64,000 nt of DNA from Thermoanaerobaculia bacterium (lineage in GTDB: Bacteria > Acidobacteriota > Thermoanaerobaculia > Multivoradales > Multivoraceae): contig OY762911.1 in the NCBI GenBank assembly GCA_963666565.1, forward strand, positions 4,512,001 to 4,576,000, in the 5' to 3' direction. Within the stretch, counting starts at the first letter, position 1, and the number at the start of each line of letters is the position of its first letter. Of this stretch, positions 23,784 through 53,570 are shown piece after piece. The translations under genes and the position numbers were made by a program. The notes beneath the pieces are model-generated. The model had not been told where the DNA came from and ran no database searches. It saw only the letters and a list, made by a program, of their open reading frames with translations.

Positions 23784-24160
23784 ACCGAGCGAACATCCCC
23801 AGACAGGCGCTCGACTTCCAGAAGCAGATTCTGGACTTCCAGAGAACCGCGTTCGAGAACGGCTACGACGCGATCGTCGCCCTCCAGCAGCGCCAGCTCG
23901 AACTCGCCGACCGGATGATGAACCAGGCGCCGAACCTCCCCGACGAGGCCCGCGAGCTGATCCGAACCTGGCGCGACGCCGCCGAGGAGAGTCAGCGCCA
24001 GTTCAAGACCACGGTCGACGGCTCGTTCGACGCCGTGACGGCCTACCTCGACCGCCTCGCCGGCGACTCCGGCGCGCCCGCCGCGCCCGCCGCGCCGAGC
24101 GATGAGCCGGCCGACCAGGCCTCGACCGAACCCCAGGCCCAAGAGGAGGCAGCCCAGTGA
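23780..24160 (+). CDS. Phasin-like amphipathic helical protein
   Basis: QILDFQRTAFENGYDAIVALQ and LPDEARELIRTW helical pattern; GAGGAG SD; sits in a lipid operon. Confidence 0.55.
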   Translation: MNRANIPRQALDFQKQILDFQRTAFENGYDAIVALQQRQLELADRMMNQAPNLPDEARELIRTWRDAAEESQRQFKTTVDGSFDAVTAYLDRLAGDSGAPAAPAAPSDEPADQASTEPQAQEEAAQ

Positions 24161-24726
24161 ACGACATGGCGACCCGGTACCCGCGGACGGTCCGCCTCAA
24201 GAACCAGTCCTTCCAGTTCAGCCTCCTGAGACAGGAAGACCGCGATCACGTGCTCGCCTTCGCGCGCGCGCTGCCGGAAGAGGACCTCCGGTTCCTCCGC
24301 GTCGACATGACGGATCCGAAGGTAGTCGACAACTGGGTCGAAGGCGCGATGGCCGGCACCCGCGTCGCCGTGCTCGCCCTGAACGGCGACCGCGTCGTCG
24401 GCTACGGCAGCCTGAACCGGCGCGAGTCGTCCTGGATGAGGCACCTAGGCGAGATCCGGATCATGGTGCTGCCCGAGGTCCGCCAACTCGGCCTCGGCGG
24501 TCACCTGGCGCACGACGTCTTCAACCTCGCCCAGCAGATCGGGCTGACCAAGATCGTCGCCCAGATGGCCCGCGAACAGCGCGGCGCCCGTCAGATGTTC
24601 CAGAACCTGGGCTTCTCGGTGGAGGCCCTGCTGGCCGACTGGGTGATCGACCCGAACGACGCCACGCACGACCTGATCCTCATGTCGTACGACGTAACGG
24701 GGCTGGAGGCCGGGGCGGGAGCGTAG
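24157..24726 (+). CDS. GNAT family N-acetyltransferase
   Basis: VVGYGSL, VRQLGLGGHL acetyl-CoA motif and FQNLGF. Confidence 0.85.
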   Translation: MNDMATRYPRTVRLKNQSFQFSLLRQEDRDHVLAFARALPEEDLRFLRVDMTDPKVVDNWVEGAMAGTRVAVLALNGDRVVGYGSLNRRESSWMRHLGEIRIMVLPEVRQLGLGGHLAHDVFNLAQQIGLTKIVAQMAREQRGARQMFQNLGFSVEALLADWVIDPNDATHDLILMSYDVTGLEAGAGA

Positions 24727-24790
24727 GCCCGCGAATAGCGCAACAGCCGATCTTCCCCCGGGTCTCGAAGCTGCCGGCGCGCGGGTGCCG

Positions 24791-24820
24791 GGTACGCGGG
24801 CCTTCTGGCCCGCTGCCGCC
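24791..24820 (+). repeat. Degenerate REP-like element
   Basis: GCGGGCC-TTCT-GGCCCGC, a compensatory variant of the first REP stem. Confidence 0.6.
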
Positions 24821-24841
24821 GGGAAACTCAGCCGGAATCCG

Positions 24842-25342
24842 TCTTGGTCCATAGAGCCGCGTGGTCGGCTCGCGACGGTCCGCGCGACGCCGCGCGGCCG
24901 GCGTCTCATGTACCATCGTCCCGTTGCCGCGGTTTCCCCGCGCGGGGTGACTGCCGACGGGAGAAACGGAACGACGGCAACGGAATCGAAGACCGGGAGC
25001 ACCTCCTTCTTGACCGAATCGGACGCGGCAGCGCGGCTTGAAGCGATACGTCGCGAGATGCGCGCCGAGCGCGCCCGGGACCACGCCGAGTTGCGCGGCG
25101 AGATGGGCGAGCTGCGTGCCGAACTGCGCGGCGAGATGGGCGAACTCCGCGACGAACTGCGCGGAGAGATGAGCGAACTGCGCGGCGAACTCCGCGGAGA
25201 GATGGGCGAACTCCGCGACGAGATTCGCGGCGACATGGAGAAGCTGCGCGCCGACCTGACCTGGCGCATGCTGCTGGTGGTGGGGGCCCTGCTGGCTGCC
25301 GCGACGGCGCTGGATCGGCTGCTGCTGGCCTGACCGTCACGG
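24842..25342 (+). repeat. Direct-repeat cassette copy 1 (promoter + hairpin leader + coiled-coil gene)
   Basis: Highly similar to 27617-28106 and 38889-39308. Confidence 0.9.
24971..25333 (+). CDS. DUF1640 / CCDC90-like coiled-coil protein with C-terminal TM helix, copy 1 (120 aa from ACG; alternative TTG at 25010)
   Basis: ELRGEMG / ELRAELRGEMG repeats followed by TWRMLLVVGALLAAA. Confidence 0.65.
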   Translation, partial: TTATESKTGSTSFLTESDAAARLEAIRREMRAERARDHAELRGEMGELRAELRGEMGELRDELRGEMSELRGELRGEMGELRDEIRGDMEKLRADLTWRMLLVVGALLAAATALDRLLLA

Positions 25343-25369
25343 CGCCGCCGCGCCGACCTTGCGCACGGC

Positions 25370-25591
25370 TCAATCGGTACTCGGTTTCGACCCTGTGGGC
25401 GGCCGCAAGCCGGTGCCGAGGCCGCCGAACCACAGCTTGAACATCTCCTGCGGGTCGGCGTACTTCAGGTTGGCCGCCATGCGGTCGCGGAACTTCTCCA
25501 GCATCTCGTTCTGGATGCCGGCCAGATCGGGGAGGCCCAGGAAGGCCCGCGCTTCTTCGGGGGTGCAGTCGATGTCGAGCTTGATCTTCAC
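25370..25591 (-). CDS. DUF6489-like small protein
   Basis: KIKLDIDCTPEEARAFLGLPDL signature; GGGAGA SD. Confidence 0.75.
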   Translation of the reverse strand: MKIKLDIDCTPEEARAFLGLPDLAGIQNEMLEKFRDRMAANLKYADPQEMFKLWFGGLGTGLRPPTGSKPSTD

Positions 25592-25739
25592 GGGTTCTCC
25601 CTTCGCGCAACGGGTTGCAGGTCACGGGGACGGGCCGCCGCCGACCTGCCGGCCGAGCGTCTGCGCCGCGGACGGCGACTAGCATACGACCCGAACGCCG
25701 GGCCGCCTGCCCCGACGTTGAACCGAGAGGAGACGAAGC

Positions 25740-27536
25740 ATGAACCGGAGTCGCGCCACGCCGGGTCTACCGGGCCTGGTCTTGCTCGCCTGCCTGCTCG
25801 GGCCTGCCGGCGGGCTCCTGGCCCAGCCGCCCGCCACGGTCATCCAGGGCGCGCGCGTGTTCACTGGCGACGACGTGCTCGAAGAGGCGACCGTCCTGAT
25901 CCGCGGCCGCACGATCGAGTCAGTCACTCTGGACGCCCACGTTCCGGCAGGCGCCGGCGCCGACGCGGAGATCGTCGACGGCGCCGGCATGACCCTGCTG
26001 CCGGGGCTGATCGACAGCCATACGCACAACTTCGGACCGTCGCTCCAGCAGGCGCTGAACTTCGGCGTCACCACCGTTCTCGACATGCTCACCGGTGAGA
26101 ACATGGCTTCCCAGTGGCGCCGGCAGCAGGCCGCGGGCGCGGTTCCGGAGCGAGCCGACGTGTTCGCGGGCGGGGGCGTGACCGTGGCTGGCGGGCACGG
26201 CACGCAGTTCGGCATCTCGCTGACGACCCTGGACGATCCGGAGCGGACGGAGACCTTCATCGCCGATCGGGCCGCCGCCGGCGCCGACTTCATCAAGGTG
26301 ATCTACGAGCCGGGAATGGAAGGGCGGCCGTTGCCGACCTTGGCCGTCTCGACCCTGCCCCGTATCGTGGCCGCCGCTCGCACTCACGACCTTCTCGCTG
26401 TCTTCCACATCAGCACGGCGGAGGCGGCCGGGGAGGCCATCGCCGCGGGCGCCGATGGCCTGGCCCACATGTACTTCGACGGCGCGGGCGGCCAGGAACT
26501 CATCGAAGCGGCCCGCAATGCCGGGATCTTCGTCGTCCCGACGCTCGCGGTGCTCGAAACGGTCACCGGGACCGGCGGCGGCCGCGAGTTGGCGGCGGAT
26601 CCGCCGATCGCGCCGTTTCTCACGCCCGAGCAGCGGGGCGGTCTGGACCAGGACTTCGGCCAGGCGCCGGACCCCGAGGCAATGGCGACAATCCTGGCCG
26701 ACGTCGGCGCGCTGCACGCCGCCGGAGTGCCGATTCTGGCCGGCTCGGACGCACCGAATCCGGGCACCGCGCACGGCGCGAGCGTCCACCGCGAACTGGA
26801 GCTGCTCGTCCGCGCCGGTCTGACTCCCGTCGAGGCTCTGCGGGCCGCAACCGCCGTGCCCGCCGACACGTTCGGGCTGGACGACCGCGGCCGCATCGCG
26901 CCCGGCTTCAAGGCGGACCTCCTGCTGGTTCGCGGCGACGCGACCGCCGACGTGCTCGCGACCCGCGACATCGCGGCGATCTGGAAGGACGGAACGCGCT
27001 TCGAGCGCCAGACCGCCGAACTCCCGACCGACCGACCGCGTCTGGAACCCGCCCTGCTCGACGACTTCGAGGGCCTGGGCGCCGGCGCCCTGCCCCCCAA
27101 GTGGTCGCACTCGACCGACGCACTTGCCGGCGGCAAGTCGACGGTGACGAGCGTCGCGGCGCCCCGCGACGAGGGCGGCAGCGCGCTCCGGATCGAGGGC
27201 GAGATCAAGGAGGGCTTCGCCTTCCCGTGGTCCGGGGTCATGGTCCTGCTCGGTTCTCAGTTCAACGACCCCTTCGACGCCGGCGGTATCCGCGCCCTGG
27301 CCTTCGAGGCCCGTGGCGAGGGCGCGACCTACCAGGCGATGGCGTTCGCCGAGAGCCTGGGAATGCGGCCGGCGGCCGCGGCCTTCGAGGCCGGCGAAGA
27401 TTGGCGCCGGGTGGAGATTCCGCTGTCGTCGTTCCGCGGTCTCGACCCTTCGGGCGTCTGGGCGTTCTTCATCGGCGGCCCCACCGAGCACGGCGCCTTC
27501 TGGCTCGAGATCGACAACGTCGAGCTGGTCGAGTAG
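25740..27536 (+). CDS. Secreted amidohydrolase with C-terminal CIA30 / carbohydrate-binding-like domain
   Basis: Signal peptide, PGLIDSHTH, GVTTVLDM, AGSDAPN and GRIAPGFKADL motifs, then a beta-sandwich C-domain. Confidence 0.85.
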   Translation: MNRSRATPGLPGLVLLACLLGPAGGLLAQPPATVIQGARVFTGDDVLEEATVLIRGRTIESVTLDAHVPAGAGADAEIVDGAGMTLLPGLIDSHTHNFGPSLQQALNFGVTTVLDMLTGENMASQWRRQQAAGAVPERADVFAGGGVTVAGGHGTQFGISLTTLDDPERTETFIADRAAAGADFIKVIYEPGMEGRPLPTLAVSTLPRIVAAARTHDLLAVFHISTAEAAGEAIAAGADGLAHMYFDGAGGQELIEAARNAGIFVVPTLAVLETVTGTGGGRELAADPPIAPFLTPEQRGGLDQDFGQAPDPEAMATILADVGALHAAGVPILAGSDAPNPGTAHGASVHRELELLVRAGLTPVEALRAATAVPADTFGLDDRGRIAPGFKADLLLVRGDATADVLATRDIAAIWKDGTRFERQTAELPTDRPRLEPALLDDFEGLGAGALPPKWSHSTDALAGGKSTVTSVAAPRDEGGSALRIEGEIKEGFAFPWSGVMVLLGSQFNDPFDAGGIRALAFEARGEGATYQAMAFAESLGMRPAAAAFEAGEDWRRVEIPLSSFRGLDPSGVWAFFIGGPTEHGAFWLEIDNVELVE

Positions 27537-27616
27537 CGGCCGGCGCGCGGAGCGACGACCCCGGAGACCGGAAGCAGGCAATAGCGCCCGCATTCACAGG
27601 GCGGCTGCCGGGCGTT

Positions 27617-28106
27617 TCTCGGTCCATAGAGCCTGACTGTCGGCTCGCGACGGTCCGCGCGACGCCGCGCGGCCGGCGCCTCATGTACCATCGTCCCGTT
27701 GCCGTGGTTCCGCTGCGCGGGGCGATCACCCAACGGGAGAAACGGAATGACGGCAATGGAATCGAAGACCGGGAGCACCTCCTTCTTGACCGAATCGGAC
27801 GCGGCAGTGCGGCTTGAAGCGATCCGTCGCGAGATGCGCGCCGAGCGCGCGCGGGACCACGCGGAACTGCGTGGCGAACTCCGCGCCGAGATGGGCGAAC
27901 TCCGCGCCGAGATGGGGGAGCTGCGCGGCGAATTCCGCGCCGAGATGGGCGAACTCCACGGCGAGATGGCCGAACTCCGCGGCGAGATTCGCGGCGACAT
28001 GGAGAAGCTGCGCGCCGACCTGACCTGGCGCATGCTGCTGGTGGTGGGCGCACTGTTGGCTGCCGCGACGGCGCTGGACCGGCTGCTGCTGGCCTGACCG
28101 TCACGG
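27617..28106 (+). repeat. Direct-repeat cassette copy 2
   Basis: Homologous to copies 1 and 3; left flank of the CRISPR-Cas island. Confidence 0.9.
27747..28097 (+). CDS. DUF1640 / CCDC90-like coiled-coil membrane protein, copy 2 (116 aa, ATG start)
   Basis: GGGAGA SD, 6 nt spacer, ATG; heptad/hendecad repeats and a TM helix. Confidence 0.75.
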   Translation: MTAMESKTGSTSFLTESDAAVRLEAIRREMRAERARDHAELRGELRAEMGELRAEMGELRGEFRAEMGELHGEMAELRGEIRGDMEKLRADLTWRMLLVVGALLAAATALDRLLLA

Positions 28107-28114
28107 CGGCCGCA

Positions 28115-28180
28115 GCCGCGAGTTGGCGGCAGATCCGCCGATCGATCCCTTCCTCACGCCCGAGCAGCGTGGCGGTCTGG
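28115..28180 (+). pseudogene. 66 bp fragment homologous to the amidohydrolase gene (26581-26646)
   Basis: 60/66 identical by manual alignment; four of the six differences are synonymous. Confidence 0.8.
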
Positions 28181-28203
28181 TCGAGGCTCGCAGGCCGCGC
28201 GTC

Positions 28204-28278
28204 GCTTCAGTGGGGCCGGCGCGCGCGCCGCGGAGACGTTGAGGACGTAGCGGCACCGACGCCCGCTTCAACGATGCC
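28204..28278 (-). repeat. Degenerate repeat(s) of a second I-G-like CRISPR repeat type
   Basis: The minus strand of 28204-28237 reads GTCTCCGCGGCGCGCGCGCCGGCCCCACTGAAGC. A second GCTTCAACGA end occurs at 28265. Confidence 0.4.
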
Positions 28279-28367
28279 AATGGCAACCGAAAAGACTGCA
28301 CACTCGAGGAGACGCCGGTAGAGGTCGGGGCAGGCGTCCGGAGAACGCCGCAGGACTCCGGTGTCGG

Positions 28368-29575
28368 CGCTCAACGAAGGCCGGAGCACAAGCCCCGGCG
28401 ACAGCCGTCGATCAGGACGCCCGTGGTCTGAGAGAGCGACCGCTCAACGAAGGCCGGAGCATAAGCCCCGGCGACAGCCGGCCCAGTGATACGCATGAAG
28501 GACAACGTAGGGGTTCGCTCAACGAAGGCCGGAGCATAAGCCCCGGCGACAGAGGTCTCCTCGGGCGGCAGGTCGCTCAGGTCGATGCCCGCTCAACGAA
28601 GGCCGGAGCAAAAGCCCCGGCGACAGCCGCGGATGGACCTGGCCGAGTATCATGCTTGGCAGTGCGCTCAACGAAGGCCGGAGCAAAAGCCCCGGCGACA
28701 GTCGTTGAAGCCGTCCTGGAAGACGAACTGTTCCTCCGCTCAACGAAGGCCGGAGCAAAGCCCCGGCGACAGCCGGGGACCGTGCGTGGGGGGCCGGGGA
28801 CGGTGCGTCGCTCAACGAAGGCCGGAGCAAAAGCCCCGGCGACAGCAGGGCCGGCCGTAGTCACTGGTCAGGGCGCGAACCGCTCAACGAAGGCCGGAGC
28901 AAAAGCCCCGGCGACAGTCCGCGGCGATCCGGCGGTAGCCGTCGCCCCGCCGCGCTCAACGAAGGCCGGAGCAAAAGCCCCGGCGACAGTCCAGGCCGTC
29001 CTGGGCGCACTCGGCGTTCCCCACCGACGCTCAACGAAGGCCGGAGCAAAAGCCCCGGCGACAGTCGTTCGCGTGCGTTGACGATGCGCGCGCCCATTGG
29101 GCGCTCAACGAAGGCCGGAGCAAAAGCCCCGGCGACAGGAACCCCTCCGTCGAGGGCGCGTCGTAGCACTGGTACGCTCAACGAAGGCCGGAGCAAAAGC
29201 CCCGGCGACAGGTCCGGCAGCGCCGTGAGGCCCGTGCAGCCGCTCAGCGCTCAACGAAGGCCGGAGCAAAAGCCCCGGCGACAGGAGATCGAGCCTTCGC
29301 AGCTCGACATCCACCTGCCCGCTCAACGAAGGCCGGAGCAAAAGCCCCGGCGACAGCTGGATCAGCTTGCGCCGGGCGCTCAGGATCGACATCGCTCAAC
29401 GAAGGCCGGAGCAAAAGCCCCGGCGACAGCTGGTGGATCATGGGCATCGGGCTCGCGTACTCGATCGCTCAACGAAGGCCGGAGCAAAAGCCCCGGCGAC
29501 AGTGCCCGTACCCACGACGACCGCGGGCGAGGCTCCAGCGCTCAACGAAGGCCGGAGCAAAAGCCCCGGCGACAG
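28368..29575 (-). CRISPR. CRISPR array: 17 repeats (37 nt, CTGTCGCCGGGGCTTTTGCTCCGGCCTTCGTTGAGCG) and 16 spacers of 35-38 nt
   Basis: Repeats counted at 28368, 28441, 28516, 28590, 28665, 28737, 28809, 28881, 28953, 29028, 29102, 29175, 29248, 29320, 29393, 29466 and 29539. Loop variants sit at the left (trailer) end, and repeat 6 has a 1 nt deletion. Confidence 0.98.
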
Positions 29576-29779
29576 TGCTAACGCTACAGAATTGTCCCGT
29601 TTCGCGCGATCTCGGCAGCACGGGGGTCGAAGACCTGACCAAACGACTCCAGTGTCCGTCGGTCCGGCCTTCTTCGCACACCAGATCGCCCCAAATCCCG
29701 CCGACCGAGCACCGGACGGGGACGCCGCAAGCGGGTTCACGGTCATTGGTGCCTGAATCACCGCGGGTTCGCACCAAGG
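29576..29779 (-). promoter_or_regulatory. CRISPR leader
   Basis: Non-coding interval between cas2 and the invariant end of the array. Confidence 0.7.
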
Positions 29780-30070
29780 TCAGACGAACCAGGGCTCCCC
29801 AGTCTCGCGCTGCTGTTCTCTGCCGAAGCGACTGCGGGCTTCCTCGATGGGCGCGGCGAAGCGATAGACGATCACCGAGTCCTGCCGGCTGTCGATCACG
29901 TCTTGCACCTCGCCGATCATGCGGGTCAGCCGCGTCGGCGACAATCGACACTCGAAAACGGACATCTGCACCCGCTGGCCGTACTTCTCGCAAACCTGCG
30001 CAACGCGCCGGAGACGCGAGGCGCCCTTGCCCTCCGTATCGGCGATGTCGTAGGTGACGAGGACGTCCAT
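29780..30070 (-). CDS. cas2: CRISPR-associated endonuclease Cas2 (I-C-like)
   Basis: VLVTYDI, RLRRVAQVCEKYGQRVQMSVFEC and DSVIVY motifs. Confidence 0.95.
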   Translation of the reverse strand: MDVLVTYDIADTEGKGASRLRRVAQVCEKYGQRVQMSVFECRLSPTRLTRMIGEVQDVIDSRQDSVIVYRFAAPIEEARSRFGREQQRETGEPWFV

Positions 30071-30073
30071 CGC

Positions 30074-31090
30074 TCAAGCCAGAACGAACGGCGGATACAC
30101 GGGGAGATCGCCTCGCAGGTGGCGCGCCAGCAGAGTCGCCTGAATCGACGGCAGCGCCCACCGGCCCACCCGCCGGCCCGACACCCGGTGGAGCACGGCA
30201 GTCTCCTTGTGGCGTTCCCACTCCTTGATCAGGCCTGCCCGGCCGTCGTCGCTCATGTAGACGCCGCCTCCCGGCGTGCGGACGAAGCTGTCGTGCCCCA
30301 CCTGTCGCCTCCGCACCAAGGACACGACGAAGCGGTCCGTGAGAGCACGCAGTTCCTCGGCAAGGTCGAGGGCCAACGAGGGCCTGCCGGACCGCGGCCG
30401 ATGGAAGAAGCCCATCTGGTAGTCCAGACCGACACTCTCCGTCGCGCCAATGAACTCAGTGACGAGAAGTCCGTAGCAGAACCCAAACATCGCGTTCACG
30501 GGATCGCGTGGCGGCCGCCGATTTCTCTTTGAGAAGCGGAGGTCGCACTTGGAGAGGGCCTGCCCGACTGCCCCGAAATAGATGCGGGCGGCGTCGCCTT
30601 CGACGCCTCGAACGTGGTCTGGGGTCTCCGCGCCGGCCAACCGCCCGACGCGATCTCCGATCTGCCTCGCCCGTTTCGCCAAACCCTCGGACTCGAAGGA
30701 GTCCCGTTCGTCGCGCGCCCAGCGTTCCACGACCTTGCGGCTGTTCTGGAGCTTCGCGGCCACGAAGGCCTTCGCCAGCGAGAGGGAATGAGCGGCATCC
30801 GAGACCGCACCATAGAGCGCCGACCGCAGGTGGACGTTGCCGCCCGTGACGCCGCCGACGACGAACCGCACTCTTCCCGACATCCCAACGGAACTGACCC
30901 GAACGCCGCGACGCACGCATGCCTCCAGCGCCTGGGTGGTTACCTGCGCACCTCCGATCAGAACGACCGCGTCGACCCCTTCAAGCGGGATCTTCCGGGC
31001 GCCCTCGGGAGTCGACACCAGAAGCGAACCGCGGCGAAACCGGACCTTGGCTCGGTGCTCGCGAACGTAGACGGAACTCAGGTAGCGCAT
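30074..31090 (-). CDS. cas1: CRISPR-associated endonuclease Cas1 (I-C-like)
   Basis: RGVEGDAARIYF, RNRRPPRDPVNA, GFFH..RSGRPSLALDLAEE and C-terminal LRGDLPVYPPF. Confidence 0.95.
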   Translation of the reverse strand: MRYLSSVYVREHRAKVRFRRGSLLVSTPEGARKIPLEGVDAVVLIGGAQVTTQALEACVRRGVRVSSVGMSGRVRFVVGGVTGGNVHLRSALYGAVSDAAHSLSLAKAFVAAKLQNSRKVVERWARDERDSFESEGLAKRARQIGDRVGRLAGAETPDHVRGVEGDAARIYFGAVGQALSKCDLRFSKRNRRPPRDPVNAMFGFCYGLLVTEFIGATESVGLDYQMGFFHRPRSGRPSLALDLAEELRALTDRFVVSLVRRRQVGHDSFVRTPGGGVYMSDDGRAGLIKEWERHKETAVLHRVSGRRVGRWALPSIQATLLARHLRGDLPVYPPFVLA

Positions 31091-31695
31091 CGAAACACAT
31101 GCCGCGCCACATAGCGCTCGATCCGAGCCGGCGCGGCCGTCACGTCGGGAAGGCAGTGGTAGTGAAGCTGACACTCCTTGCAGCGCTGGTCATTGGGCGC
31201 CTCGGGCAAGACGGCGTCGACAAGCTGGTCCCGGATCTGCTGCACGACTTCTGCTACCTGGCCCCGCAGCGCCACGGTGAACTCGACGCAAACCCGGCGT
31301 CGCGGCCCGCCGTACCAGACGAAGCCCTCCGGCACCTCGACGCTCAGCATCTCCTCGAGGCACAGAGCCTGGGCGCAAAGTTGCAGGTCGGCCGCCGAAC
31401 CGTGACGAACGCCCGACTTGTACTCCACCGGGCGCGCCGCTCCGCCCTCAAGCTCAACCGCATCGGCTCTGCCAGAGAGCCCCAACGCCTCCGACCACAA
31501 CGGGATCGCCCGGAGGACGAAGCGGCCTCGCTCCTGCCGGTGCTCGCCGCCATCCACCCGCCGGTGCGAACGCGATCCACGAACGGTATGGGCGTTGTCG
31601 GCCCAGACGCCGTCGCAGTGGATCAAGGCGCACTGTCGTGGGCAGTAGACGAAGTGCTCGATCGCGGAGATCGGGACGATGGGTTCAGAAGTCAC
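31078..31695 (-). CDS. cas4: CRISPR-associated Cas4 (stand-alone)
   Basis: ISAIEHFVYCPRQ, GRADAVE, PVEYK, QLCAQALCLEEM and CKECQLHYHC Fe-S cysteines. Confidence 0.95.
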   Translation of the reverse strand: MTSEPIVPISAIEHFVYCPRQCALIHCDGVWADNAHTVRGSRSHRRVDGGEHRQERGRFVLRAIPLWSEALGLSGRADAVELEGGAARPVEYKSGVRHGSAADLQLCAQALCLEEMLSVEVPEGFVWYGGPRRRVCVEFTVALRGQVAEVVQQIRDQLVDAVLPEAPNDQRCKECQLHYHCLPDVTAAPARIERYVARHVFRCAT

Positions 31696-32585
31696 AGGGG
31701 CTCAGCCCCGAACCCTCTTGTGGGGTCCAGGTCAGCTCGGCGTTGAAACGCAACTGTGCGCCACGCCGCGTGGACACCCAAGCTCGGCCAAGCCTCTCTC
31801 GGCCCCGGCTTCCAAGCGTCCAGGAGCGCGTCGATCGCTCGGAAGTCAAGCAGTTGGCACCATGCGGGCCACACGAACTGGCGGTCCTTCCGATCTCTCT
31901 TCAGCCTCCAGCCTCTCTGTACCACGCCCGCCCGCCCGAACCGCTTCCCGTTCACAGCAACTCCCGGCCCACGAACCGGCAACAGCGCGAGACCAAAGAA
32001 GGCGAGCAACTCGACCATCGGCTCGACCTGCGGATCCGTGCTGTCCGCCAAAGAGCCCAAGCGGCTCAAGTCAAAGCCAAGTCCGTTGCTCTGGACTCTG
32101 AGCGCTTGCCCAGAAAGCCCGTCCGAAATCCGTTCCGCAGTGGGCTGAACTTCGGCATGCACACGCAGCAGGCGGGAGAACAGTGTCAGGCCTTGCGGTG
32201 CAGGCGGATCAAACGGCGCATGCTCGACCTTCTCTCCATCATCGAGTTGCAGATCGGTAACGGTCGACGAGAGCGTCCAAGAGTAGGGATGGCCACGGGT
32301 CGCCCGAACTCGTGCGCGGAAGTCCTGCCAAGAGACGTGCCGGCCAAATCGACCCACTCCTTGTCGCTCGTCCGCAAGCGGCATGTCCCGGAGCACCTCC
32401 TTACTTGGCCAAGAGGCGACGAGGGCCGAAACCGGGTCAATGTCCTCAGCAGCAAGGACCGCCACCGCCGTTGTCCCCGAGGTCCAGCCAAGCCGAATCC
32501 TCGAATCCAACACCGTGGTCCCAACAGCCGCCAACCAGCCGTTGAGCCAAGAGGCCTGCAAGCCGGGACACTCAACGCGGTTCAT
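31692..32585 (-). CDS. Short Cas8g (Cas8u2 / Csb3-like) large subunit, 297 aa
   Basis: Lies after cas3 in the I-G operon with ATGA overlaps. LNGWLAAVG N-terminal and ELLAFFGLALLPV..FVWPAW motifs. Confidence 0.6.
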   Translation of the reverse strand: MNRVECPGLQASWLNGWLAAVGTTVLDSRIRLGWTSGTTAVAVLAAEDIDPVSALVASWPSKEVLRDMPLADERQGVGRFGRHVSWQDFRARVRATRGHPYSWTLSSTVTDLQLDDGEKVEHAPFDPPAPQGLTLFSRLLRVHAEVQPTAERISDGLSGQALRVQSNGLGFDLSRLGSLADSTDPQVEPMVELLAFFGLALLPVRGPGVAVNGKRFGRAGVVQRGWRLKRDRKDRQFVWPAWCQLLDFRAIDALLDAWKPGPREAWPSLGVHAAWRTVAFQRRADLDPTRGFGAEPL

Positions 32586-35407
32586 GCGCCCGACCCCCTA
32601 CCACTGCCGACGCCTCCGGAAGATACGGCGTGGTCGGCCTGCCTGAGGACGGCTTCGAGGAGGGCAAGCCCCCACGGCCCGAATCGATCGTTCAAGCGCC
32701 CGAACCGGGCCGGCTGATCCCAGTCGACAATGGACAGATCCGCCCCTGCTTCGACCCGCACACCGTCAAACAGCGCGGACACACGGCCTGCCGTGCCGTC
32801 GCCGACCGGCAGGACTAGCGGGCGCCCTCGACCGTGGTGACTGACGATCAGGTGCAGAAGAAGGTCGACTTCCCACGAACCGCAGACAGAGGGCTGTGAC
32901 CGGAGCCAATCTCTCGCCAGACGTAAGGAGAGTTCTTCGTGGCGGCCTCCCCTGGGCCACCCGGCAGCTGCTCTCCTGGGCTCCCAAAGGTGACGCGGCG
33001 TCGCCGACTTCGCAACAAGAGCGCCGCCCTTCTCCCGGTCGGGGACGAGCCACCGTTGAAACCGCAGGTCCGCCTTGCCCACGTCATGCCACGAACCGGC
33101 TCTCTCAAGGACCTCAGCAAGCTCGGCGGCGACGCCGATGTGTTCGGCGATCGAACGCGCCTGACCTGCAACCGCGCGGCCGTGAAGCGCAAGGTCGACG
33201 GCCGCTATGGCGAGCGACCTCTCGTCGCGCTCGTCGCTCGGCCGTTCCGCGGGAGCACCGCTCCTGGGCAGGCGAGAAACCTCGTGCGCGCTCGACGCTA
33301 CCCGCCTGTCCAGGGAGGCGAGGAAACCGCTCCATTCCTGCTCGGTCCATCCTGGCGGCAGGACCTCCTCAAGATGATCGAGAATCTGTTCGACCGCCTC
33401 CACACGTTCATCGTCGTCGACGCCCTCATCGTCATCGGAAACGCCCAAGGCGACGTTCACGAGGCTGGTCAGCTCGACGCCGCAAAGCCGGCGCAGCGCT
33501 GACGCGTCGAGCGGCAGTCCGCGATCCACCAAGGAGACATCGACAACGGGCGCCGTGGACGACGGGTTCCAGCCGAACTCGTCGATCAAGCCCCGGTCTG
33601 AAGGCAAGACACACGTATCCCCGGGTCTCAGGCCGCTGATGGACACCATCTCGACCGTGACGCGGTCGGAACGCAGGCGGCAGAGTTCCTCGTCCTCACC
33701 CAGAGCTTCCCTCGCCTCGCCGATCGGTACCTGAACGGCCTCCCGGTCGGTAGCCCTAGGCCACAACGACTCGCCTTCGCCCGGAACATGGGCCCTCCAA
33801 AGCAGCGACACCGAGAAGTCCGGGCAGGCGATCCCGGAGAAGTACGGTTCCACCGGCGCTTCGCCTTCGGGCGGCGTGGTCGTCTTCGTCCACTCCCACA
33901 GCAGCGCGGGCAGCACCTCGGGCGCCCGCCCCGGGTCGTCGCCCGGCGGGCCGAGAGTCTTCGAAACCTGACGAGGCGACAGATCGACTGCCGCTGACCT
34001 GCCGCCGTCCAGGGCCGATTCCAGTCTCCCCAGAACACGGGCGGGCTCTTCGTCATAGACCGGCCACACCTCAACCGAACCGGTCGCGCCGCGACGGCGC
34101 TTCGGCGACTTCGACGGAGGCAGATGGACGTAGACGCCGCGTGCCTGCGGATACCGGCCCAGCCGGTTCAACCTGCCGAGTCGCTGCGTCAATGCCCGTA
34201 CGCCGCAGGCCTCCGTGACCAGATACTCCGCGTCGACGTCGGCGCCGACTTCCAGAGTCTGGGTCGCGACAACGACCAGGTGACGCTTTCTCGCCCTGGC
34301 AGCGTCGCGCTTCGACGCCATGCCGTGGACCGGGTCGAGGATCTGCTGCCGGATCTTCTCCGCCTCCCGCTCACGGGATCGACCGGTCAGCAACCGAATG
34401 TCGGCGAAACCGCTGGCCGTCTTGTTCCGGAGAAGCTCGAACGCCGCCCTCGCCTGCCTGGGCGTGTTGGCGAACACGAGGCAACTGGCCTTGGCTGGCG
34501 CCTCGGGGAGCAGCTCAAGGGCCGCTTCCGCCAGCAGCTTCGCGACATCGCCGCTCTTGCGGGCTCGCACTTCGACCGGCTTCGCCGCGTCCAGGCGCTT
34601 CTTCACGACATCGTGCGCCAGATCGTCGGACCCAAGGTCGAACCGCTCCGTTTCGCCGGCGTCTCCGGTCGCCGTGAGCGCCACGACCCTCGGCCTTGAA
34701 CGACACTCGCCGAGGATCGCCCGAGCCCGGGGAGTGCATTCCTCCAGGGCCGGTATCAGCTTCTGAAGGTGGGTCGCCAGGTGCGCTTCGTCAACGAGAA
34801 CGAGACTGTCGGTACCCGCAAGCGCTGCGTCGACCGGACGCATGGAGCGCGATGACCCGTAGCCGCGGAACAACAGCCGCGATCCGTACATGGGTACCGT
34901 GGCCAGAAGCACTGCGGGCTTCGACGGATCCGTCGGCCGGCGCGAAACGACGCCGCCCCGGAGACGGATGACGTCCAGCGGGTCGCCGTCCTGACCGGCT
35001 GAGAGCGAGGAAAGCCGCTCGGCTACGGCGGCAACAGCTTCAAGGGACTCGCCACGAAGCCCGGCCCGGTCCGGACTCCGGAGCTTGTCCAGAATCGCAT
35101 CGGCATGATCGGCGGTGGAATCGACGAGCAGGCGCCGGTTGACGATCCACCAGATCCGGGTCGGGGCGGTGCGGTCGGCGGGCGCGCAATCGGCCTGTGA
35201 CGCGAGCCACCAGATCGCAATGTCGAGACAGGCCGTCTTCCCGAGGCCCGTCGGTACGCCTATCTCGGCCGGCCACCCTTCCGAGGCCACGAGACGCGCC
35301 AACCGGTCCTGCCAGGGGAAGGGATCCCGCCCGTTGACCGCGCTATAGAAGGCGGTAAAGGACGGCATGGCGGCGGAACCCGGCCGGACCGGCACGGTCC
35401 TCGCCAC
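32582..35407 (-). CDS. cas3: Type I-G Cas3 helicase with C-terminal HD nuclease
   Basis: PFPWQ, PTGLGKT, DEAH, TAT, VATQTLEVGAD and QRLGRLNR motifs, then WHDVGK, RHE, SHHG and RQAD. Confidence 0.95.
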   Translation of the reverse strand: MARTVPVRPGSAAMPSFTAFYSAVNGRDPFPWQDRLARLVASEGWPAEIGVPTGLGKTACLDIAIWWLASQADCAPADRTAPTRIWWIVNRRLLVDSTADHADAILDKLRSPDRAGLRGESLEAVAAVAERLSSLSAGQDGDPLDVIRLRGGVVSRRPTDPSKPAVLLATVPMYGSRLLFRGYGSSRSMRPVDAALAGTDSLVLVDEAHLATHLQKLIPALEECTPRARAILGECRSRPRVVALTATGDAGETERFDLGSDDLAHDVVKKRLDAAKPVEVRARKSGDVAKLLAEAALELLPEAPAKASCLVFANTPRQARAAFELLRNKTASGFADIRLLTGRSREREAEKIRQQILDPVHGMASKRDAARARKRHLVVVATQTLEVGADVDAEYLVTEACGVRALTQRLGRLNRLGRYPQARGVYVHLPPSKSPKRRRGATGSVEVWPVYDEEPARVLGRLESALDGGRSAAVDLSPRQVSKTLGPPGDDPGRAPEVLPALLWEWTKTTTPPEGEAPVEPYFSGIACPDFSVSLLWRAHVPGEGESLWPRATDREAVQVPIGEAREALGEDEELCRLRSDRVTVEMVSISGLRPGDTCVLPSDRGLIDEFGWNPSSTAPVVDVSLVDRGLPLDASALRRLCGVELTSLVNVALGVSDDDEGVDDDERVEAVEQILDHLEEVLPPGWTEQEWSGFLASLDRRVASSAHEVSRLPRSGAPAERPSDERDERSLAIAAVDLALHGRAVAGQARSIAEHIGVAAELAEVLERAGSWHDVGKADLRFQRWLVPDREKGGALVAKSATPRHLWEPRRAAAGWPRGGRHEELSLRLARDWLRSQPSVCGSWEVDLLLHLIVSHHGRGRPLVLPVGDGTAGRVSALFDGVRVEAGADLSIVDWDQPARFGRLNDRFGPWGLALLEAVLRQADHAVSSGGVGSGRGSGA

Positions 35408-36861
35408 TACCGGCCCCTCTCACCGTCGCCGGTCGCCTGTGCCGGGACGCAGAGGCCAAACCCCCGCTGGCGTCCCGAGCCGATGACGACCGGCCCGCGA
35501 ATCGGCTCCTTGAACCAAAGCTCGACATGCGAGTAGGGCAGCCTTGGCCTGCCCGGCCGATTCACCTCCACCGGCGCCAGGTCGACGGCCCCGCGAACCA
35601 ATGGACCACGGGTCGACCGGAACGCCAGAGGCGCGGGCAAACCAGCGTGCCGGCACCACCGCGACAGTTCCGCGAGAGTCACGGGGCCCCGCCGTTCGTG
35701 GATGGCCGGAAAGACCGTCACCCAACCCCGCGAGGAGCGAGTCCAGCGCGACGGATTCGCGGCCAGAGGGCGTTCGGTGCCGTCGTGAGGCGAAACGCGC
35801 ACGTCAACGCCGCCGCCGGTCAGTCTCCGGACGGCGAGCGCGGCGTCGCGACAACGCCGCCGCTCGATCGACTCCTGTTCCGGCGGGAGCCAAAGCGCGA
35901 GACCGAAGATGCGGCCCCGGGACCGGGGGAATCCGGCATCCGGCAGAGCAAGAAACCGGGCAATGTCATAGCCACGTTCGGCGAATCCGTGACCGTGCAG
36001 CACTGGCAGCGGCTCGCCGAAAAGGCCCTGGTACCTGCTCAGCGTGGCCTTCTTGAAAAGCGCGGTGACGTCCGAAACGCGGCGGCCCGAAACCGGGGTC
36101 CGCAGTCGGAGCCAGGCGACGACGCCTCCTCGGTCCGGCGTCGTGCTGAAGCTGAGTCGGGGCGACCTGTAGCTCTCCTCGTGGCGCAGCGCCGGGTATT
36201 GGGACCGCGCCACGGAGGCGCCGCGGTCGACCCAGGCGTCGTACATCGCGTCGAGGATGGACAGGTCGCCTTCCGCGGGCACGGCGATCGCCAGATCGCC
36301 GTCGGGGTCCGGAGTGAAGGCGGCGGTCCCGCCGTCCAGGCCGGGAGGCCGGGTCAGCACTCGCAGTCTTGCCGGCGAGTCCGATGTCCCGAAGTAGCCG
36401 ACCCGGGCAGCGCGAAGCCGAAGCGCATCGACGATCGGCGCGGCTGGCGTCTGGGCTTCCCAAATGTAGGTGATCCGGGGAACCCGAGGCGCAACGCGGA
36501 CCCCCGGGCGAACCTCGGCACTTTTACGCCCGACATACTCTTGGTATGCGGTCGTCTCTCCCGTGCGCTGGTGCCTAAAGAACCGGCGCGAGTGTTTCAC
36601 CACGAATCGGGGCAAGAGTTCTTGGTGCTGCGGGTCCGGATCGGCGTGGATGACCGGCGGCGGCAGGCGCTCGAACCACGTCAGTTCGGCACCGTCGGTG
36701 ACGCGGCATCTCGTCCCAGTGCCGTCAGCGGCCACCAGCGCGGCGAAGAGTCTCGACGGCGATGGCGGCCATTCTCCCTGGGTCAGGAGACCGGTGCTCG
36801 AGGCGCCGCTGCCATCTCCGCGGAACGTCCCGTGCAGCAGATCGACCGAGATGGCGAACAT
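35407..36861 (-). CDS. csb2: Type I-G Cas5/Cas6 fusion Csb2
   Basis: EWPPSPSRLFAALVA and C-terminal G-rich loop IRGPVVIGSGRQRGFGLC. Confidence 0.9.
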   Translation of the reverse strand: MFAISVDLLHGTFRGDGSGASSTGLLTQGEWPPSPSRLFAALVAADGTGTRCRVTDGAELTWFERLPPPVIHADPDPQHQELLPRFVVKHSRRFFRHQRTGETTAYQEYVGRKSAEVRPGVRVAPRVPRITYIWEAQTPAAPIVDALRLRAARVGYFGTSDSPARLRVLTRPPGLDGGTAAFTPDPDGDLAIAVPAEGDLSILDAMYDAWVDRGASVARSQYPALRHEESYRSPRLSFSTTPDRGGVVAWLRLRTPVSGRRVSDVTALFKKATLSRYQGLFGEPLPVLHGHGFAERGYDIARFLALPDAGFPRSRGRIFGLALWLPPEQESIERRRCRDAALAVRRLTGGGVDVRVSPHDGTERPLAANPSRWTRSSRGWVTVFPAIHERRGPVTLAELSRWCRHAGLPAPLAFRSTRGPLVRGAVDLAPVEVNRPGRPRLPYSHVELWFKEPIRGPVVIGSGRQRGFGLCVPAQATGDGERGR

Positions 36862-36862
36862 C

Positions 36863-38071
36863 TCAGTCCGCGAGGTCGGGCCACGTAGCTCGAATGACCT
36901 TGCGGAGGTCCTCCTTGGGTGTGAGAACGACCGGCTCTTCGCGCCAGCCGTCGAGGGGCACGCCCGCGGACTCCGCGTGTTCCACGGAATCCAACAGCAA
37001 AGCTGCCGCCCCATCGGCATCGCCGAGTGCGCACTCATCGTCGCCCCCGTCCCCAAGCCACGTCACCGTGGACCGCGTCGGTCGAAGGTCGGCGCCCGAC
37101 CGGAGCGCGAAACTGCCGCCGAACGCGTGCATATGGGCGTACAGGCCCAGGGCGACAAGAAGCGCGCGCGAGGCCGCGTCCGCGCCTGCGGAGTAACCGG
37201 CCCCGAGACTCACTCGCCGCAACTGAGCGAAGGAAACGGTGGCCCGCTGACTCACCCGGGCAAAGGAAATCGCAGCGGCTGCTGGCTGGTCATCATCCTG
37301 TCCGCCCATGAACGGGATCTGGCCGTGACCGATCTTCGACAGCTTGCCACCCTTCTTACCCGGCTTGCTGCCTTCGCGGATTCTCCACTTGGTCTGATCG
37401 CTATCCTGGTGCTCAACCGCTTCGTCCACGTTGAGATTCAGCGCATCGCCTTTCAGGCCAAGGACTCTCGTATCCGTCGAGGCGGGTTTCCATCCCACGA
37501 TCTCCGACACCCACGCACGGGCGTGTTTCGTGTTGTGGCGCTTCTTGCCCAGATGCGACTGCCAGAATCCGTACAGCAACGCCTGAGGGAACCACGCCAT
37601 CAGGGGCCCAGCCTCCTGTGCGGTGGCGCCGAAGATCGACTTCCCCACCTCCGTCCTGATGAAGTCCTCGTCGCCGAGCCTGGCGTCCCTGAGGTAGGCG
37701 TCGGCGTTGCGGTGCGGAAACTCCAGACTCGACAGCCGCCTCGGAAGATGGGCCGGCAGATTCGGCAGACTCGACAAGTCGAGAACGAACTCCGGCACCG
37801 GCACCCGGTCCCGGTTCCGGCGCAGCGCGTCCTCAAGACGGTTCGCCTGCGACGGCACGTTGTCGATCACGATGACCGGCGTGGGTCCGTCGTCGTCAGG
37901 AGAGCCCCAACGCGTGTCTTTCTGGTACCTGCCGCCTTCGTACACGGCGGGCTTCACTGGACCGCCCGGGCCCGCCAGAGGAGTCAGTTCCGTGTCGATG
38001 CGGATGCCGGCTTCAAAGGAGTCGTCGGCACAAGCCGAGAGCAGTGAGTTCAGCTCGATCATGCGTTCCAT
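36863..38071 (-). CDS. csb1: Type I-G Cas7 Csb1
   Basis: VKPAVY, IDNVPSQANRLE, PHRNADAYLR, ALLYGFWQS, GHGQIP and LRSGADL motifs. Confidence 0.9.
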   Translation of the reverse strand: MERMIELNSLLSACADDSFEAGIRIDTELTPLAGPGGPVKPAVYEGGRYQKDTRWGSPDDDGPTPVIVIDNVPSQANRLEDALRRNRDRVPVPEFVLDLSSLPNLPAHLPRRLSSLEFPHRNADAYLRDARLGDEDFIRTEVGKSIFGATAQEAGPLMAWFPQALLYGFWQSHLGKKRHNTKHARAWVSEIVGWKPASTDTRVLGLKGDALNLNVDEAVEHQDSDQTKWRIREGSKPGKKGGKLSKIGHGQIPFMGGQDDDQPAAAAISFARVSQRATVSFAQLRRVSLGAGYSAGADAASRALLVALGLYAHMHAFGGSFALRSGADLRPTRSTVTWLGDGGDDECALGDADGAAALLLDSVEHAESAGVPLDGWREEPVVLTPKEDLRKVIRATWPDLAD

Positions 38072-38215
38072 GTGGGGGGTCTTTCATTACAGAGAGATAG
38101 CACGCGACGCCGGAACATACTTGAGCATGGGCGCATAGGTCAAGAAGCGGTCGGGAGCCGCCACGGCCTTCCAGTGAGGTCCGCCAACGCGGACTCGCCT
38201 CGAACACCGCATACA

Positions 38216-38244
38216 TTGCGGCGCGTAACGCATCGCGCTACAGT
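38216..38244 (+). promoter_or_regulatory. higBA promoter (TTGCGG-17-TACAGT) overlapped by the palindromic operator GTAACGC-ATC-GCGCTAC
   Basis: Sigma70-like spacing with an imperfect palindrome at 38225-38241. The GTG start lies 7 nt after the -10, implying a leaderless mRNA. Confidence 0.6.
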
Positions 38245-38251
38245 TGCAACG

Positions 38252-38524
38252 GTGAGGATCAGGCACAAGGGGCTTCGGGCACTGCATGAGCGAGATGATC
38301 GGTCCCGACTTCCCGCGGCCTTCGTGCCTCGGCTGAGGCGCATCCTCTTCCGGCTGCATGAGGCAGACCACCCGCAAAGCGCCGATGCACCGGGCTTCCG
38401 GCTTCATCCGTTGAAGGGCGACCGTTCTGGCCAGTGGAGTGTACGCGTCTCCGGCAACTGGCGGGTCGTGTTCCGATTCGAGGATGGCGAAGCCGTGGAC
38501 GTGGACCTGATCGACTACCACTAG
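38252..38524 (+). CDS. higB: HigB / RelE-family toxin
   Basis: RHKGLR, FRLHPLKGDRSGQWSVRVSGNWRVVFRF and C-terminal DYH. Confidence 0.92.
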   Translation: MRIRHKGLRALHERDDRSRLPAAFVPRLRRILFRLHEADHPQSADAPGFRLHPLKGDRSGQWSVRVSGNWRVVFRFEDGEAVDVDLIDYH

Positions 38525-38545
38525 CGCGAGAGGAGAGAACCCACG

Positions 38546-38893
38546 ATGAACAAGCGAGAGAACGATCGTGTCGGCCCAATGGTGAACCCTCCGCATCTGG
38601 GCGAGCTCATTCGCGAGAGCATGGACGACGTCGGATGGAACGTCACCGAGACGGCGGCCCGACTGGGCTGCGAACGTGGAACTCTCTCGCGCCTGCTGAA
38701 CGGCAGGGCGGGTGTCTCCGCCAAGATGGCGCTGGCGCTCGAGGACATCGGTTGGGGAACCGCCGTCCATTGGATGCGGATGCAGGCCAGCTACGACCTG
38801 GCGCAGGCGCGGCGCTTGCGAGCAACCGCACGAGGCGCTACGACGGCCCAACTCCAAACGCCTCGAACCGCCCCCGCAACGGCACGCTCGTGA
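38546..38893 (+). CDS. higA: HigA-family XRE antitoxin
   Basis: PPHLGELI, HTH AARLGCERGTLSRLLNG, SAKMALAL and WMRMQASYDL. Confidence 0.92.
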   Translation: MNKRENDRVGPMVNPPHLGELIRESMDDVGWNVTETAARLGCERGTLSRLLNGRAGVSAKMALALEDIGWGTAVHWMRMQASYDLAQARRLRATARGATTAQLQTPRTAPATARS

Positions 38894-39308
38894 CGCCGCG
38901 CGGTCGGCGTCTCATGTACCATCGTCCCTCTGCCGCGGTTTCCCCGCACGGGGCGACTGCCGACGGGAGAACGGAACGACGGTAACGGAATCGAAGACCG
39001 GGAGCACCTCCTTCTTGACCGAATCGGACGCGGCAGTGCGGCTTGAAGCGATCCGTCGCGAGATGCGCGCCGAGCGCGCGCGGGACCACGCGGAACTGCG
39101 TGGCGAACTCCGCGCCGAGATGGGGGAGCTGCGCGGCGAACTCCGCGCCGAGATGGGCGAACTCCGCGGCGAGATAGCCGAACTCCGCGGCGAGATTCGC
39201 GGCGACATGGAGAAGCTCCGCGCCGACCTCACCTGGCGCATGCTGCTCGTGGTGGGCGCCTTGCTGGCCGTCGCGACGGCGCTGGACCGGCTGCTGCTGG
39301 CCTGACCC
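38889..39308 (+). repeat. Direct-repeat cassette copy 3
   Basis: Homologous to copies 1 and 2; right flank of the CRISPR-Cas island. Confidence 0.9.
38976..39305 (+). CDS. DUF1640 / CCDC90-like coiled-coil membrane protein, copy 3 (109 aa from ACG)
   Basis: Same protein as copy 2 minus one heptad. Confidence 0.65.
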   Translation, partial: TTVTESKTGSTSFLTESDAAVRLEAIRREMRAERARDHAELRGELRAEMGELRGELRAEMGELRGEIAELRGEIRGDMEKLRADLTWRMLLVVGALLAVATALDRLLLA

Positions 39309-39397
39309 TCGCGGCGGCGGTCGCCGCGCCGACTTCATCCATCGAGGCGATCGCACCGGACGGCGCACGGGAGCTCCGGCGAGGCTACAATCGCCGA

Positions 39398-40624: not shown

Positions 40625-40648
40625 CCCACGGCCGTTCTCCGTCATGAC

Positions 40649-53520: not shown

Positions 53521-53570
53521 CGGTGCGAACGTCGACGTCCGGCGCCGCGGGGTAACTGAACTGCGACTCT

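Follow-up and report, generated by a model that had tools for sequence, protein, structure and literature searches.

A CRISPR-Cas module bracketed by paralogous small genes beside a genus-wide CRISPR hot spot in a Thermoanaerobaculia genome

The repeated gene and its copies

The 64,000-nucleotide stretch of DNA analyzed here (the window) corresponds to C1:4512001-4576000 of G000, a Thermoanaerobaculia genome that consists of a single 4.79-Mb contig (C1) with a G+C content of 70.6%. It carries three copies, R1 to R3, of a short unit, R, made up of a small gene and its leader, and the second and third of these bracket a CRISPR-Cas locus together with a HigBA toxin-antitoxin (TA) pair. From left to right, the locus comprises a GNAT gene (24157-24726), R1, a DUF6489 gene on the minus strand, an amidohydrolase gene, R2, a fragment of the amidohydrolase gene, a CRISPR array, a set of minus-strand cas genes, higB, higA, R3, and a CoA-transferase gene, and this order, as first reported, is borne out by the Pfam, NCBIfam, and PADLOC profile searches from which gene identities were taken. 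In the original prediction the R copies were viewed as homologous-recombination landing pads forming an integrase-free cassette array, and hence as a candidate undescribed system; on balance, the locus appears instead to hold a defence hot-spot module that recombination between R paralogs has re-seated, and no dedicated integrase-free cassette system.

The copies within the window, delimited by a repeat search, MAFFT alignment, and blastn, are co-oriented on the plus strand and 0.45-0.54 kb in length (R1, 24842-25356; R2, 27617-28120; R3, approximately 38889-39335). R1, which occupies the gap between the GNAT and DUF6489 genes, is extended to 24814-25356 by its homology with two copies outside the window, which begins further upstream, at 24814. 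Each unit consists of a conserved leader of approximately 125-195 nt, shortened in R3, followed by a small open reading frame (ORF) that starts with TTG at 25010, 27786, or 39015 and encodes 107, 103, or 96 aa (coding sequences 25010-25333, 27786-28097, and 39015-39305, respectively). The encoded proteins share a conserved N-terminus, vary in their number of ELRGEMG-type heptads, and end in a hydrophobic helix. Indels of 1 nt between the copies show the leader to be non-coding. By blastn, identity amounts to 86.6% over 515 nt between R1 and R2, 88.1% over 463 nt between R2 and R3, and 84.3% over 479 nt between R1 and R3, so that the claim of three co-oriented and similar copies, non-coding DNA included, is upheld. 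The description of the locus as a triplication holds for the window but not for the genome, where R is present in five copies, the remaining two being R4 (C1:2430401-2430896, minus strand) and R5 (C1:4399819-4400395, minus strand); the independent R loci number three.

Misassembly is an extremely improbable source of the repeated copies. It is true that none of the R copies is covered from end to end by a single contig; however, R1, R2, and R3 differ from one another at 12-16% of nucleotides and by in-frame indels, the genome forms one contig, and each unique junction is covered by contigs with 0 differences in three runs. Nine sequencing runs were matched to the genome, four of which contain 91-95% of the sampled words; these four come from one study, possibly the source of the assembly. 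Short Logan contigs from runs X6, X8, X9, and X1 were placed on the window, and in each of the first three the passages from amidohydrolase into R2 (25434-27668), from higA into R3 (38494-39013), and from R3 into the CoA-transferase gene (39278-40004) are reproduced with 0 differences. No recombinant R2/R3 junction or circle appeared among these contigs, which break inside R and so could not have revealed a deletion, duplication, or circle formed between R2 and R3.

Judged from its sequence, the R product would be a coiled-coil protein with a single C-terminal membrane helix and a distant relative of the CCDC90-like/DUF1640 family. R1 to R3 and R4 score 17.7-21.7 bits against PF07798, below the gathering cut-off of 33.5, while homologues in relatives score 36-68 bits, several of them sharing 43-56% identity with R. 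Relatives of the protein are encoded in 37 of the 41 further genomes of the genus at E<=1e-6 and in one of 16 genomes from other genera of the same order; most of them have ABC-2 transporter/glycosyltransferase genes or Mrp antiporter genes as neighbours. Neither PADLOC nor NCBIfam contains a model that matches R, and Pfam reveals no transposase domain in it. Pooled over R1 to R5, pN/pS is 0.108, with pS between 0.13 and 0.26, and all five copies must therefore have been maintained for their protein product and are not of very recent origin. R is thus a functional gene under purifying selection and not mere recombination DNA; it is an ordinary small gene that has been amplified in a lineage-specific manner.

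The leader, from approximately 24883 onward, is 85-98% identical among R1 to R4 and 76-91% identical to that of R5, and is about as conserved as synonymous sites or more so. Its conserved segments lie at 24905-25012, 27680-27788, and 38911-39017 in the window and, on the minus strand, at 8298-8406 of L001 and 8381-8488 of L002 (designations with L refer to extracted loci and those from G001 upward to other genomes of the genus). G018 and two metagenome contigs (L059 and L060) have a recognizable, partly conserved version of it. RNAalifold predicts a long hairpin and a further hairpin over the ribosome-binding site, with covariation in three of 29 pairs. Rfam holds no family for the leader, its sole match in 24000-40000 being a sub-threshold CRISPR repeat model, and a scan of R1 for a sigma-70 promoter and a terminator found neither. 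Beyond the genus panel, none of 64 pattern matches for R in viral contigs was confirmed and R was not found in plasmids; in metagenome contigs, at least six R relatives came from the pattern matches listed (596), and two close ones were among the matches listed.

The insertion and the corresponding loci of related genomes

The genes on either side of the module have a stable arrangement within the genus, for which 41 other genomes were available and 20 amidohydrolase/CoA-transferase loci were extracted and compared. The DUF6489 gene (25370-25621, minus strand; PF20099, 40.8 bits) adjoins the amidohydrolase gene (25740-27536, plus strand; PF01979), which has a match at E<=1e-80 in 33 of the 41 genomes, and in all 20 loci the two are followed by the family III CoA-transferase gene (39398-40624, plus strand; PF02515; match in 40 of the 41 genomes) and by Pyr_redox/AIRS genes. 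The gap between amidohydrolase and CoA-transferase is at most 165 nt (17-165 nt) in 19 of the 20 relatives, the exception being G048, with a 2-kb insert. In G000 the first 10-16 nt or so of this ancestral spacer, as judged from the spacers of 14 relatives, remain at the left (27537-27553), and the complete spacer precedes the CoA-transferase gene at the right (39355-39397). Since the spacer is split here and the two genes are adjacent in relatives, 27554-39354, from R2 through R3, constitutes a lineage-specific insertion of 11.8 kb. G+C content is 63-68% over 29.5-39 kb, compared with 70-77% in the flanks. The insert of G048 (L038 9358-11398) encodes an AAA ATPase matching PADLOC models of the HEC-01A, AbiL, and Gabija-A types, and a 135-aa ORF.

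The interval between R1 and R2 has a different character. Its two genes, DUF6489 and amidohydrolase, are core genes in their ancestral place, and the proposed cassette array finds no support in an interval that is syntenic in 20 of 20 relatives. With the R protein as query, tblastn gave no match in any of the 20 loci, and where solitary R copies or changing cargo between them would have supported the original prediction, all 20 are without R at either site.

On the other side of the DUF6489 gene, the gap to GNAT measures at most 72 nt in eight of the 20 relatives, contains inserts of 1-3 kb in four, and is larger in the remaining eight. Five of these larger gaps contain type I-G cas genes (G047, G045, G052, G056, and G023), two contain type I-E cas genes (G048 and G054), and one holds a WYL regulator only (G002), so that the gap is filled in 12 relatives and carries cas genes in seven. 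The GNAT/DUF6489 gap is thus a CRISPR hot spot throughout the genus and has no need of R, which the relatives' inserts lack, and the notion of R copies as landing pads is to that extent not supported. One of the four smaller inserts is a MazE-PIN pair.

The most informative counterpart is found in G023, which carries the same I-G variant (split cas4/cas1, Cas proteins 52-70% identical, and a similar repeat) and no R. Its order is GNAT, a higA pseudogene with 78% nucleotide identity to higA of the window, a motif resembling an IS21 terminus, the array, cas2 through csb1, a WYL gene, DUF6489, amidohydrolase, and CoA-transferase. Compared with G023, the module of G000 lies on the opposite side of the DUF6489-amidohydrolase pair and higBA, in unchanged orientation, adjoins csb1 and no longer the array; the change in module order from G023 to G000 is a circular permutation with its break at the present R2/R3. 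In run X1, labelled as a sponge metagenome, a 91%-identical contig joins the 3' half of R to DUF6489 (25118-25605), and R1 is thus common to a relative that is closer than any species representative.

Recombination among the copies and the origin of the present order

Evidence that the copies have exchanged sequence comes from segment-wise pairwise differences across the aligned units. R2 and R3 are identical over the first 89 coding nucleotides (0/89 differences) and nearly so over the next 99 (3/99), and this tract of approximately 190 nt sits inside copies that elsewhere differ by 8-15%, as in the leader segments (10/68 and 7/58) and the 3' coding part (8/103). Other pairs are closest in other segments: R1 and R3 in the proximal leader (1/58), R1 and R2 in the 3' coding part (4/103), and R2 and R4, which are 2.1 Mb apart, in the proximal leader (3/59). 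Such incongruent identities point to gene conversion, and they show that the copies serve as recombination partners of each other; the mosaicism is no demonstration of crossing-over that excises the island.

The favoured reading, in which a hot-spot module was relocated through recombination between R paralogs, may be set out as follows. The DUF6489-amidohydrolase pair marks the place where congeners keep type I-G or I-E loci, usually in the GNAT/DUF6489 gap. In G000 the I-G module is inserted in the amidohydrolase/CoA-transferase spacer, with a copy of R at each end, and the present order would have arisen from homologous recombination through R, from duplication, or from both, followed by deletions. 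The direct repeats R2 and R3 would make the module of approximately 11.3 kb liable to be deleted or tandemly amplified by RecA, and HigBA would disfavour cells that lose it. Segments between long direct repeats, such as IS elements, rrn operons, and paralogs, are deleted or amplified by RecA, and R, at 0.45-0.5 kb, 88% identity, and with a near-identical tract of approximately 190 nt, is an adequate substrate for this process; unlike IS elements and rrn operons, it is a small selected membrane-protein gene with a leader. Among tandem-duplication and Campbell-type single paths worked out by hand, none yields the present order in fewer than approximately three events.

Two relics lie at the left junction of the module. 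The first, next to R2, is an interior fragment of the amidohydrolase gene (28107-28186, plus strand), 80 nt in length and 88% identical to 26573-26652 (87.5% over 80 nt); the predicted fragment is therefore present but amounts to only 80 nt or so, no longer match to the amidohydrolase gene being found beyond it. It overlaps the 3' end of R2 homology by 14 nt, and the join consequently looks like a microhomology junction. At 80 nt, the fragment is too short for its donor to be placed among the relatives. The second relic is an IS21-family right terminus of 88 nt (28281-28368, minus strand), which directly abuts the first CRISPR repeat and is 93% identical over 89 nt to the only IstA/IstB element of the genome, an IS21-family element at C1:4343-4345 kb (matching terminus C1:4345049-4345134; L066 approximately 7050-7134). 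In G023, too, the array is preceded by a similar terminus, and this scar is therefore older than the relocation of the module. Both relics are scars of illegitimate events. The statement that the locus lacks integrases, transposases, and tRNAs accordingly stands for genes (there is no integrase or transposase domain among the 43 window ORFs scanned and no tRNA in the 64-kb window) but not for relics. No inverted repeats were found in 22000-42000.

These features bear on whether a ready-made island, from R2 to R3, was inserted once by a site-specific or transposon-type event whose enzyme gene has since been lost, with R lying internal to the ends. Such an origin, which we regard as distinctly unlikely, would explain why each side of the insertion bears the first 10 nt or so of the ancestral spacer, in the manner of a short target duplication; it would also suit the IS21 terminus inside the module, the unrelated defence-type insert of G048 in the same spacer, and an 18-nt direct repeat with two mismatches that flanks R4. 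The spacer duplicate, however, is short and imperfect and failed an ungapped test in which 14 of 200 random flank pairs scored, the window offers neither an integrase or transposase gene nor a tRNA, and the IS21 relic, being common to G023, predates the relocation. In the test for target duplications around the R copies, R4 alone passed, at a level reached by 10 of 200 random flank pairs. The repeat around R4 occupies approximately 7983-8000 and 8571-8588 of L001, right after R4 and 72 nt before the start of homology.

Elsewhere in the genome, R4 borders the second CRISPR-Cas locus of G000, of type I-E, in which the order, in the orientation of R, is cas3 through cas1, cas2, array, a 62-aa ORF, a 573-aa gene, higA, a PIN gene on the opposite strand, R4, and a PQQ dehydrogenase gene. 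Its higA is 89% identical in nucleotides to that of the window, and the DNA of the 62-aa ORF has an 80-nt, 82% match to the 3' end of higB. The interval from the PQQ dehydrogenase to a PLP decarboxylase gene measures 19 kb in G000 and from 2.6 to approximately 32 kb in relatives. R is present on one side only of the I-E locus, and of the five proteins flanking R5 none matches PADLOC; R1 has no defence partner either. Of the R paralogs outside the window, R4 thus flanks a defence locus, on one side, and R5 does not; R2 and R3 do bracket a defence island as direct repeats. Two of the three R loci lie within 5 kb of CRISPR-Cas genes, for which the probability by chance is approximately 2e-4, and R thus sits at CRISPR loci above chance. 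The I-E locus extends over C1:2434400-2446306 (L001 12016-16496 and L065 1-8307), with at least 41 repeats at a 61-nt period and an RNase T-like exonuclease gene.

Several observations weigh against simple re-seating by recombination among paralogs. R keeps company with CRISPR and TA genes more than would be expected of a pure by-product. At the I-E locus, higA is followed downstream by R4; in G018, which has the closest homologue of R outside this species (71% identity), the gene occupies the interval from cas4/1 to csb2 of an I-G locus, a slot that is held by higBA in four other species and in which no remnant of higBA was found; and in L059 and L060, both metagenome loci, an R of 72% identity adjoins an RHH-PIN pair. 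The circular permutation relative to G023 would fit a circle reopened by recombination in R, without amounting to proof of one.

Part of this evidence belongs to an account in which R is portable homology, R-bearing modules circularize and integrate by RecA into any R in the manner of Campbell, and are so moved, lost, or amplified while HigBA enforces their retention. The exact position of R2 and R3 at the two ends of the insertion speaks for it, as do the permuted order of the module with its break at R, the solitary R1 in the CRISPR hot spot, which resembles a solo repeat left by excision, the mosaic copies that recombine even 2.1 Mb apart, and R4 at the edge of the I-E locus. Portable homology of this kind is nonetheless unlikely to have built the locus. 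All 20 relatives lack R at both sites, even though their hot spot is being used, R borders the I-E locus at just one end, core genes fill the interval from R1 to R2, and R5 is without defence neighbours (0/5 in PADLOC); moreover, R is under strong purifying selection as a protein, did not turn up in viral contigs or plasmids, and shares its locus with a transposon relic.

The association with TA genes could alternatively reflect function, R being a companion of defence modules in the form of a small membrane protein under the control of its leader RNA, either addiction- or abortive-infection-like or accessory to CRISPR or TA systems. The R of G018 in the cas4/1-csb2 slot, which holds higBA at four of four other loci, and the position of R directly 3' of higA at two G000 loci would agree with such a role, as would a leader that is 85-98% identical while synonymous sites differ by 13-26%, its predicted hairpins, one of them over the ribosome-binding site, and the multiple copies of the gene. 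In Clostridioides difficile, small membrane type I toxins are described beside CRISPR arrays (PMC5961336). Members of the R family in relatives, however, sit in housekeeping contexts, PADLOC and NCBIfam yield no match, R1 and R5 have no defence partner, and covariation in the leader is weak (3/29 pairs). Typical type I toxins are also shorter than the 96-107 aa of R, and a companion function is accordingly regarded as doubtful. A composite proposal can be considered quite unlikely: that R is a selection-maintained companion of CRISPR/TA islands which replaces HigBA as an addiction or abortive module, its copies doubling as homology arms for integrase-free circularization and re-insertion between hot spots.

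The CRISPR-Cas module, HigBA, and related systems

The re-seated module, as it is viewed here, contains a CRISPR-Cas locus that its profile matches place in type I-G (formerly I-U), with cas2, cas1, cas4, a Cas3-extension-family gene, cas3g, csb2, and csb1 in the 5' to 3' direction of the window, all on the minus strand. Next to cas2 lies the array (28368-29575), whose strand is taken as minus from the cas genes; it consists of 17 repeats of 37 nt, 16 of which match the repeat pattern while one has a 1-nt deletion, and 16 spacers of 35-38 nt, with degenerate repeats at the low-coordinate end. None of the spacers has a full match elsewhere in the G000 genome. The adaptation genes, cas2 (29780-30073), cas1 (30074-31174), and cas4 (31078-31695), were identified by Pfam and NCBIfam. 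Where type I-G typically has a Cas4g/Cas1g fusion, the window has two distinct ORFs with a 97-nt overlap, cas4 encoding 205 aa and cas1 366 aa (NF049935, 135.3 and 270 bits; cut-off, 560), a split form that is shared with G020 and G023.

The remaining cas genes are the Cas3-extension-family gene (31692-32585; 297 aa; NF049934, 61.5 bits; cut-off, 65), cas3g (32582-35407; TIGR02621, 605.6 bits; cut-off, 400; PADLOC Cas3g, 653.8 bits), with a C-terminal HD domain at residues 736-862, csb2/cas5-6g (35407-37056; TIGR02165, 173.8 bits; cut-off, 45; PADLOC Cas56g), and csb1/cas7g (36863-38071; TIGR02570, 60.6 bits; cut-off, 38; PADLOC Cas7g). Csb1 is long (402 aa), the family match being confined to residues 21-195, and no model for the large subunit Cas8g/Csx17 matched.

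As expected of a HigBA type II TA system, the gene for the HigB/RelE-fold toxin lies upstream of that for the HigA helix-turn-helix antitoxin. The former (38252-38524, plus strand; probable start, 38252) encodes 90 aa (PF05015, 55.4 bits; cut-off, 27) and the latter (38546-38893, plus strand) 115 aa (TIGR02607, 67.6 bits; cut-off, 47.7). The higA stop codon, at 38891-38893, does fall on the R3 junction, as had been noted, R3 homology starting at 38889. Proteins at least 65% identical to HigA (65-91%) are encoded at 20 loci in other genomes of the genus, 13 of them (in 12 genomes) within 5 kb of a Cas1 match. Where cas4/1 is fused, higBA or higA stands between it and the effector genes in four of four loci (G049, G045, G005, and G052), and it follows the array in G020, in G023, and in the I-E locus of G000. 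HigBA is therefore a steadier companion of cas loci than R, and its linkage to them is independent of R. A stabilizing role would fit this genus-wide linkage, if indirectly, and HigBA may be considered a candidate protein TA system guarding CRISPR-Cas.

TA modules that guard CRISPR-Cas are known as CreTA (PMC9458426; PMC10097628), and type I TA systems are reported beside CRISPR arrays in C. difficile (PMC5961336). The locus resembles both, as they are described in these sources, in the physical coupling of a TA system to CRISPR-Cas, with one HigBA lineage accompanying both I-G and I-E loci; it differs in that HigBA is a protein type II pair, not known to be Cascade-controlled, and in that any dependence of cells on the island through HigBA is putative. 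The name HigB is absent from a review of TA-CRISPR associations (PMC12737573), and among the literature listings and abstracts searched there was no paper on HigBA in type I-G loci or on DUF1640-type genes at CRISPR loci. A HigBA lineage that travels with I-G and I-E loci throughout a genus provides a testable candidate for a protein TA system that stabilizes CRISPR-Cas.

Among published concepts, the core defence hot spot comes closest to the locus as a whole. The Pseudomonas aeruginosa hot spots cDHS1 and cDHS2 are presented as variable defence slots between core genes, with no obvious mobile-element machinery, and transfer through homologous recombination of the flanks has been proposed for them (Johnson et al., 2023; PMC10250203). 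A variable, defence-rich slot between conserved core genes (20 of 20 relatives) is a shared property, whereas the module of G000 is displaced by two genes from the usual slot and is bracketed by small non-core paralogs, not by core genes only; furthermore, the hot spot here extends across species of a genus, and cDHS1/2 across strains of one species. With integron arrays, the locus has in common co-oriented repeated boundaries between gene blocks, but there is no IntI-type integrase among the 43 ORFs, the boundaries are genes of 0.5 kb and not attC sites, and one of the "cassettes" consists of core genes. It is likewise unlike a composite transposon, as R has no transposase domain and inverted repeats were not found in 22000-42000.

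How defence systems enter core hot spots and move between them without mobile machinery is an open question, for which the locus offers a concrete case: the same CRISPR-Cas module is found at two neighbouring positions in two species and, in one of them, is flanked by recombining paralogs. Should the repeats be only a by-product, it would represent well-documented but ordinary hot-spot dynamics.

Some minor features of R-bearing loci and of the window may be added. In G018, short duplicated segments that are 81-90% identical (L043 4970-5475 and 6251-6348) lie 5' of the R gene, within 1.8 kb of unassigned DNA that replaces higBA in the I-G locus. The RHH-PIN pair is located between R and gcpE in L059 (10244-10833) and after gcpE in L060 (11636-12383), where a duplicate of approximately 50 nt of the gcpE start lies beside the cassette. 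Convergent with R5 are three tandem copies of a gene for 360-390 aa, 76-85% identical (L002 4527-7959; C1:approximately 4396.3-4399.8 kb), which have no match in Pfam or PADLOC. The contig joints listed for the window have sides of 19-42 nt or stem from paralogous R copies. One of them, 39328 to 24791, is found in X6, X8, and X9 at a genome-like depth of 36-50 and consists of the R 3' end, 35 other letters, and a REP-like element; it was given no weight because it starts in that element, and it probably derives from another REP-bearing locus or organism. The REP-like element is a palindromic 37-mer just 5' of R1 (24786-24822), with 129 matches of at least 30 nt among 161 genome-wide; it recurs in the window at 3526-3557, 47653-47685, 50500-50526, and 53490-53523 and is present in approximately 130-160 copies in the genome.

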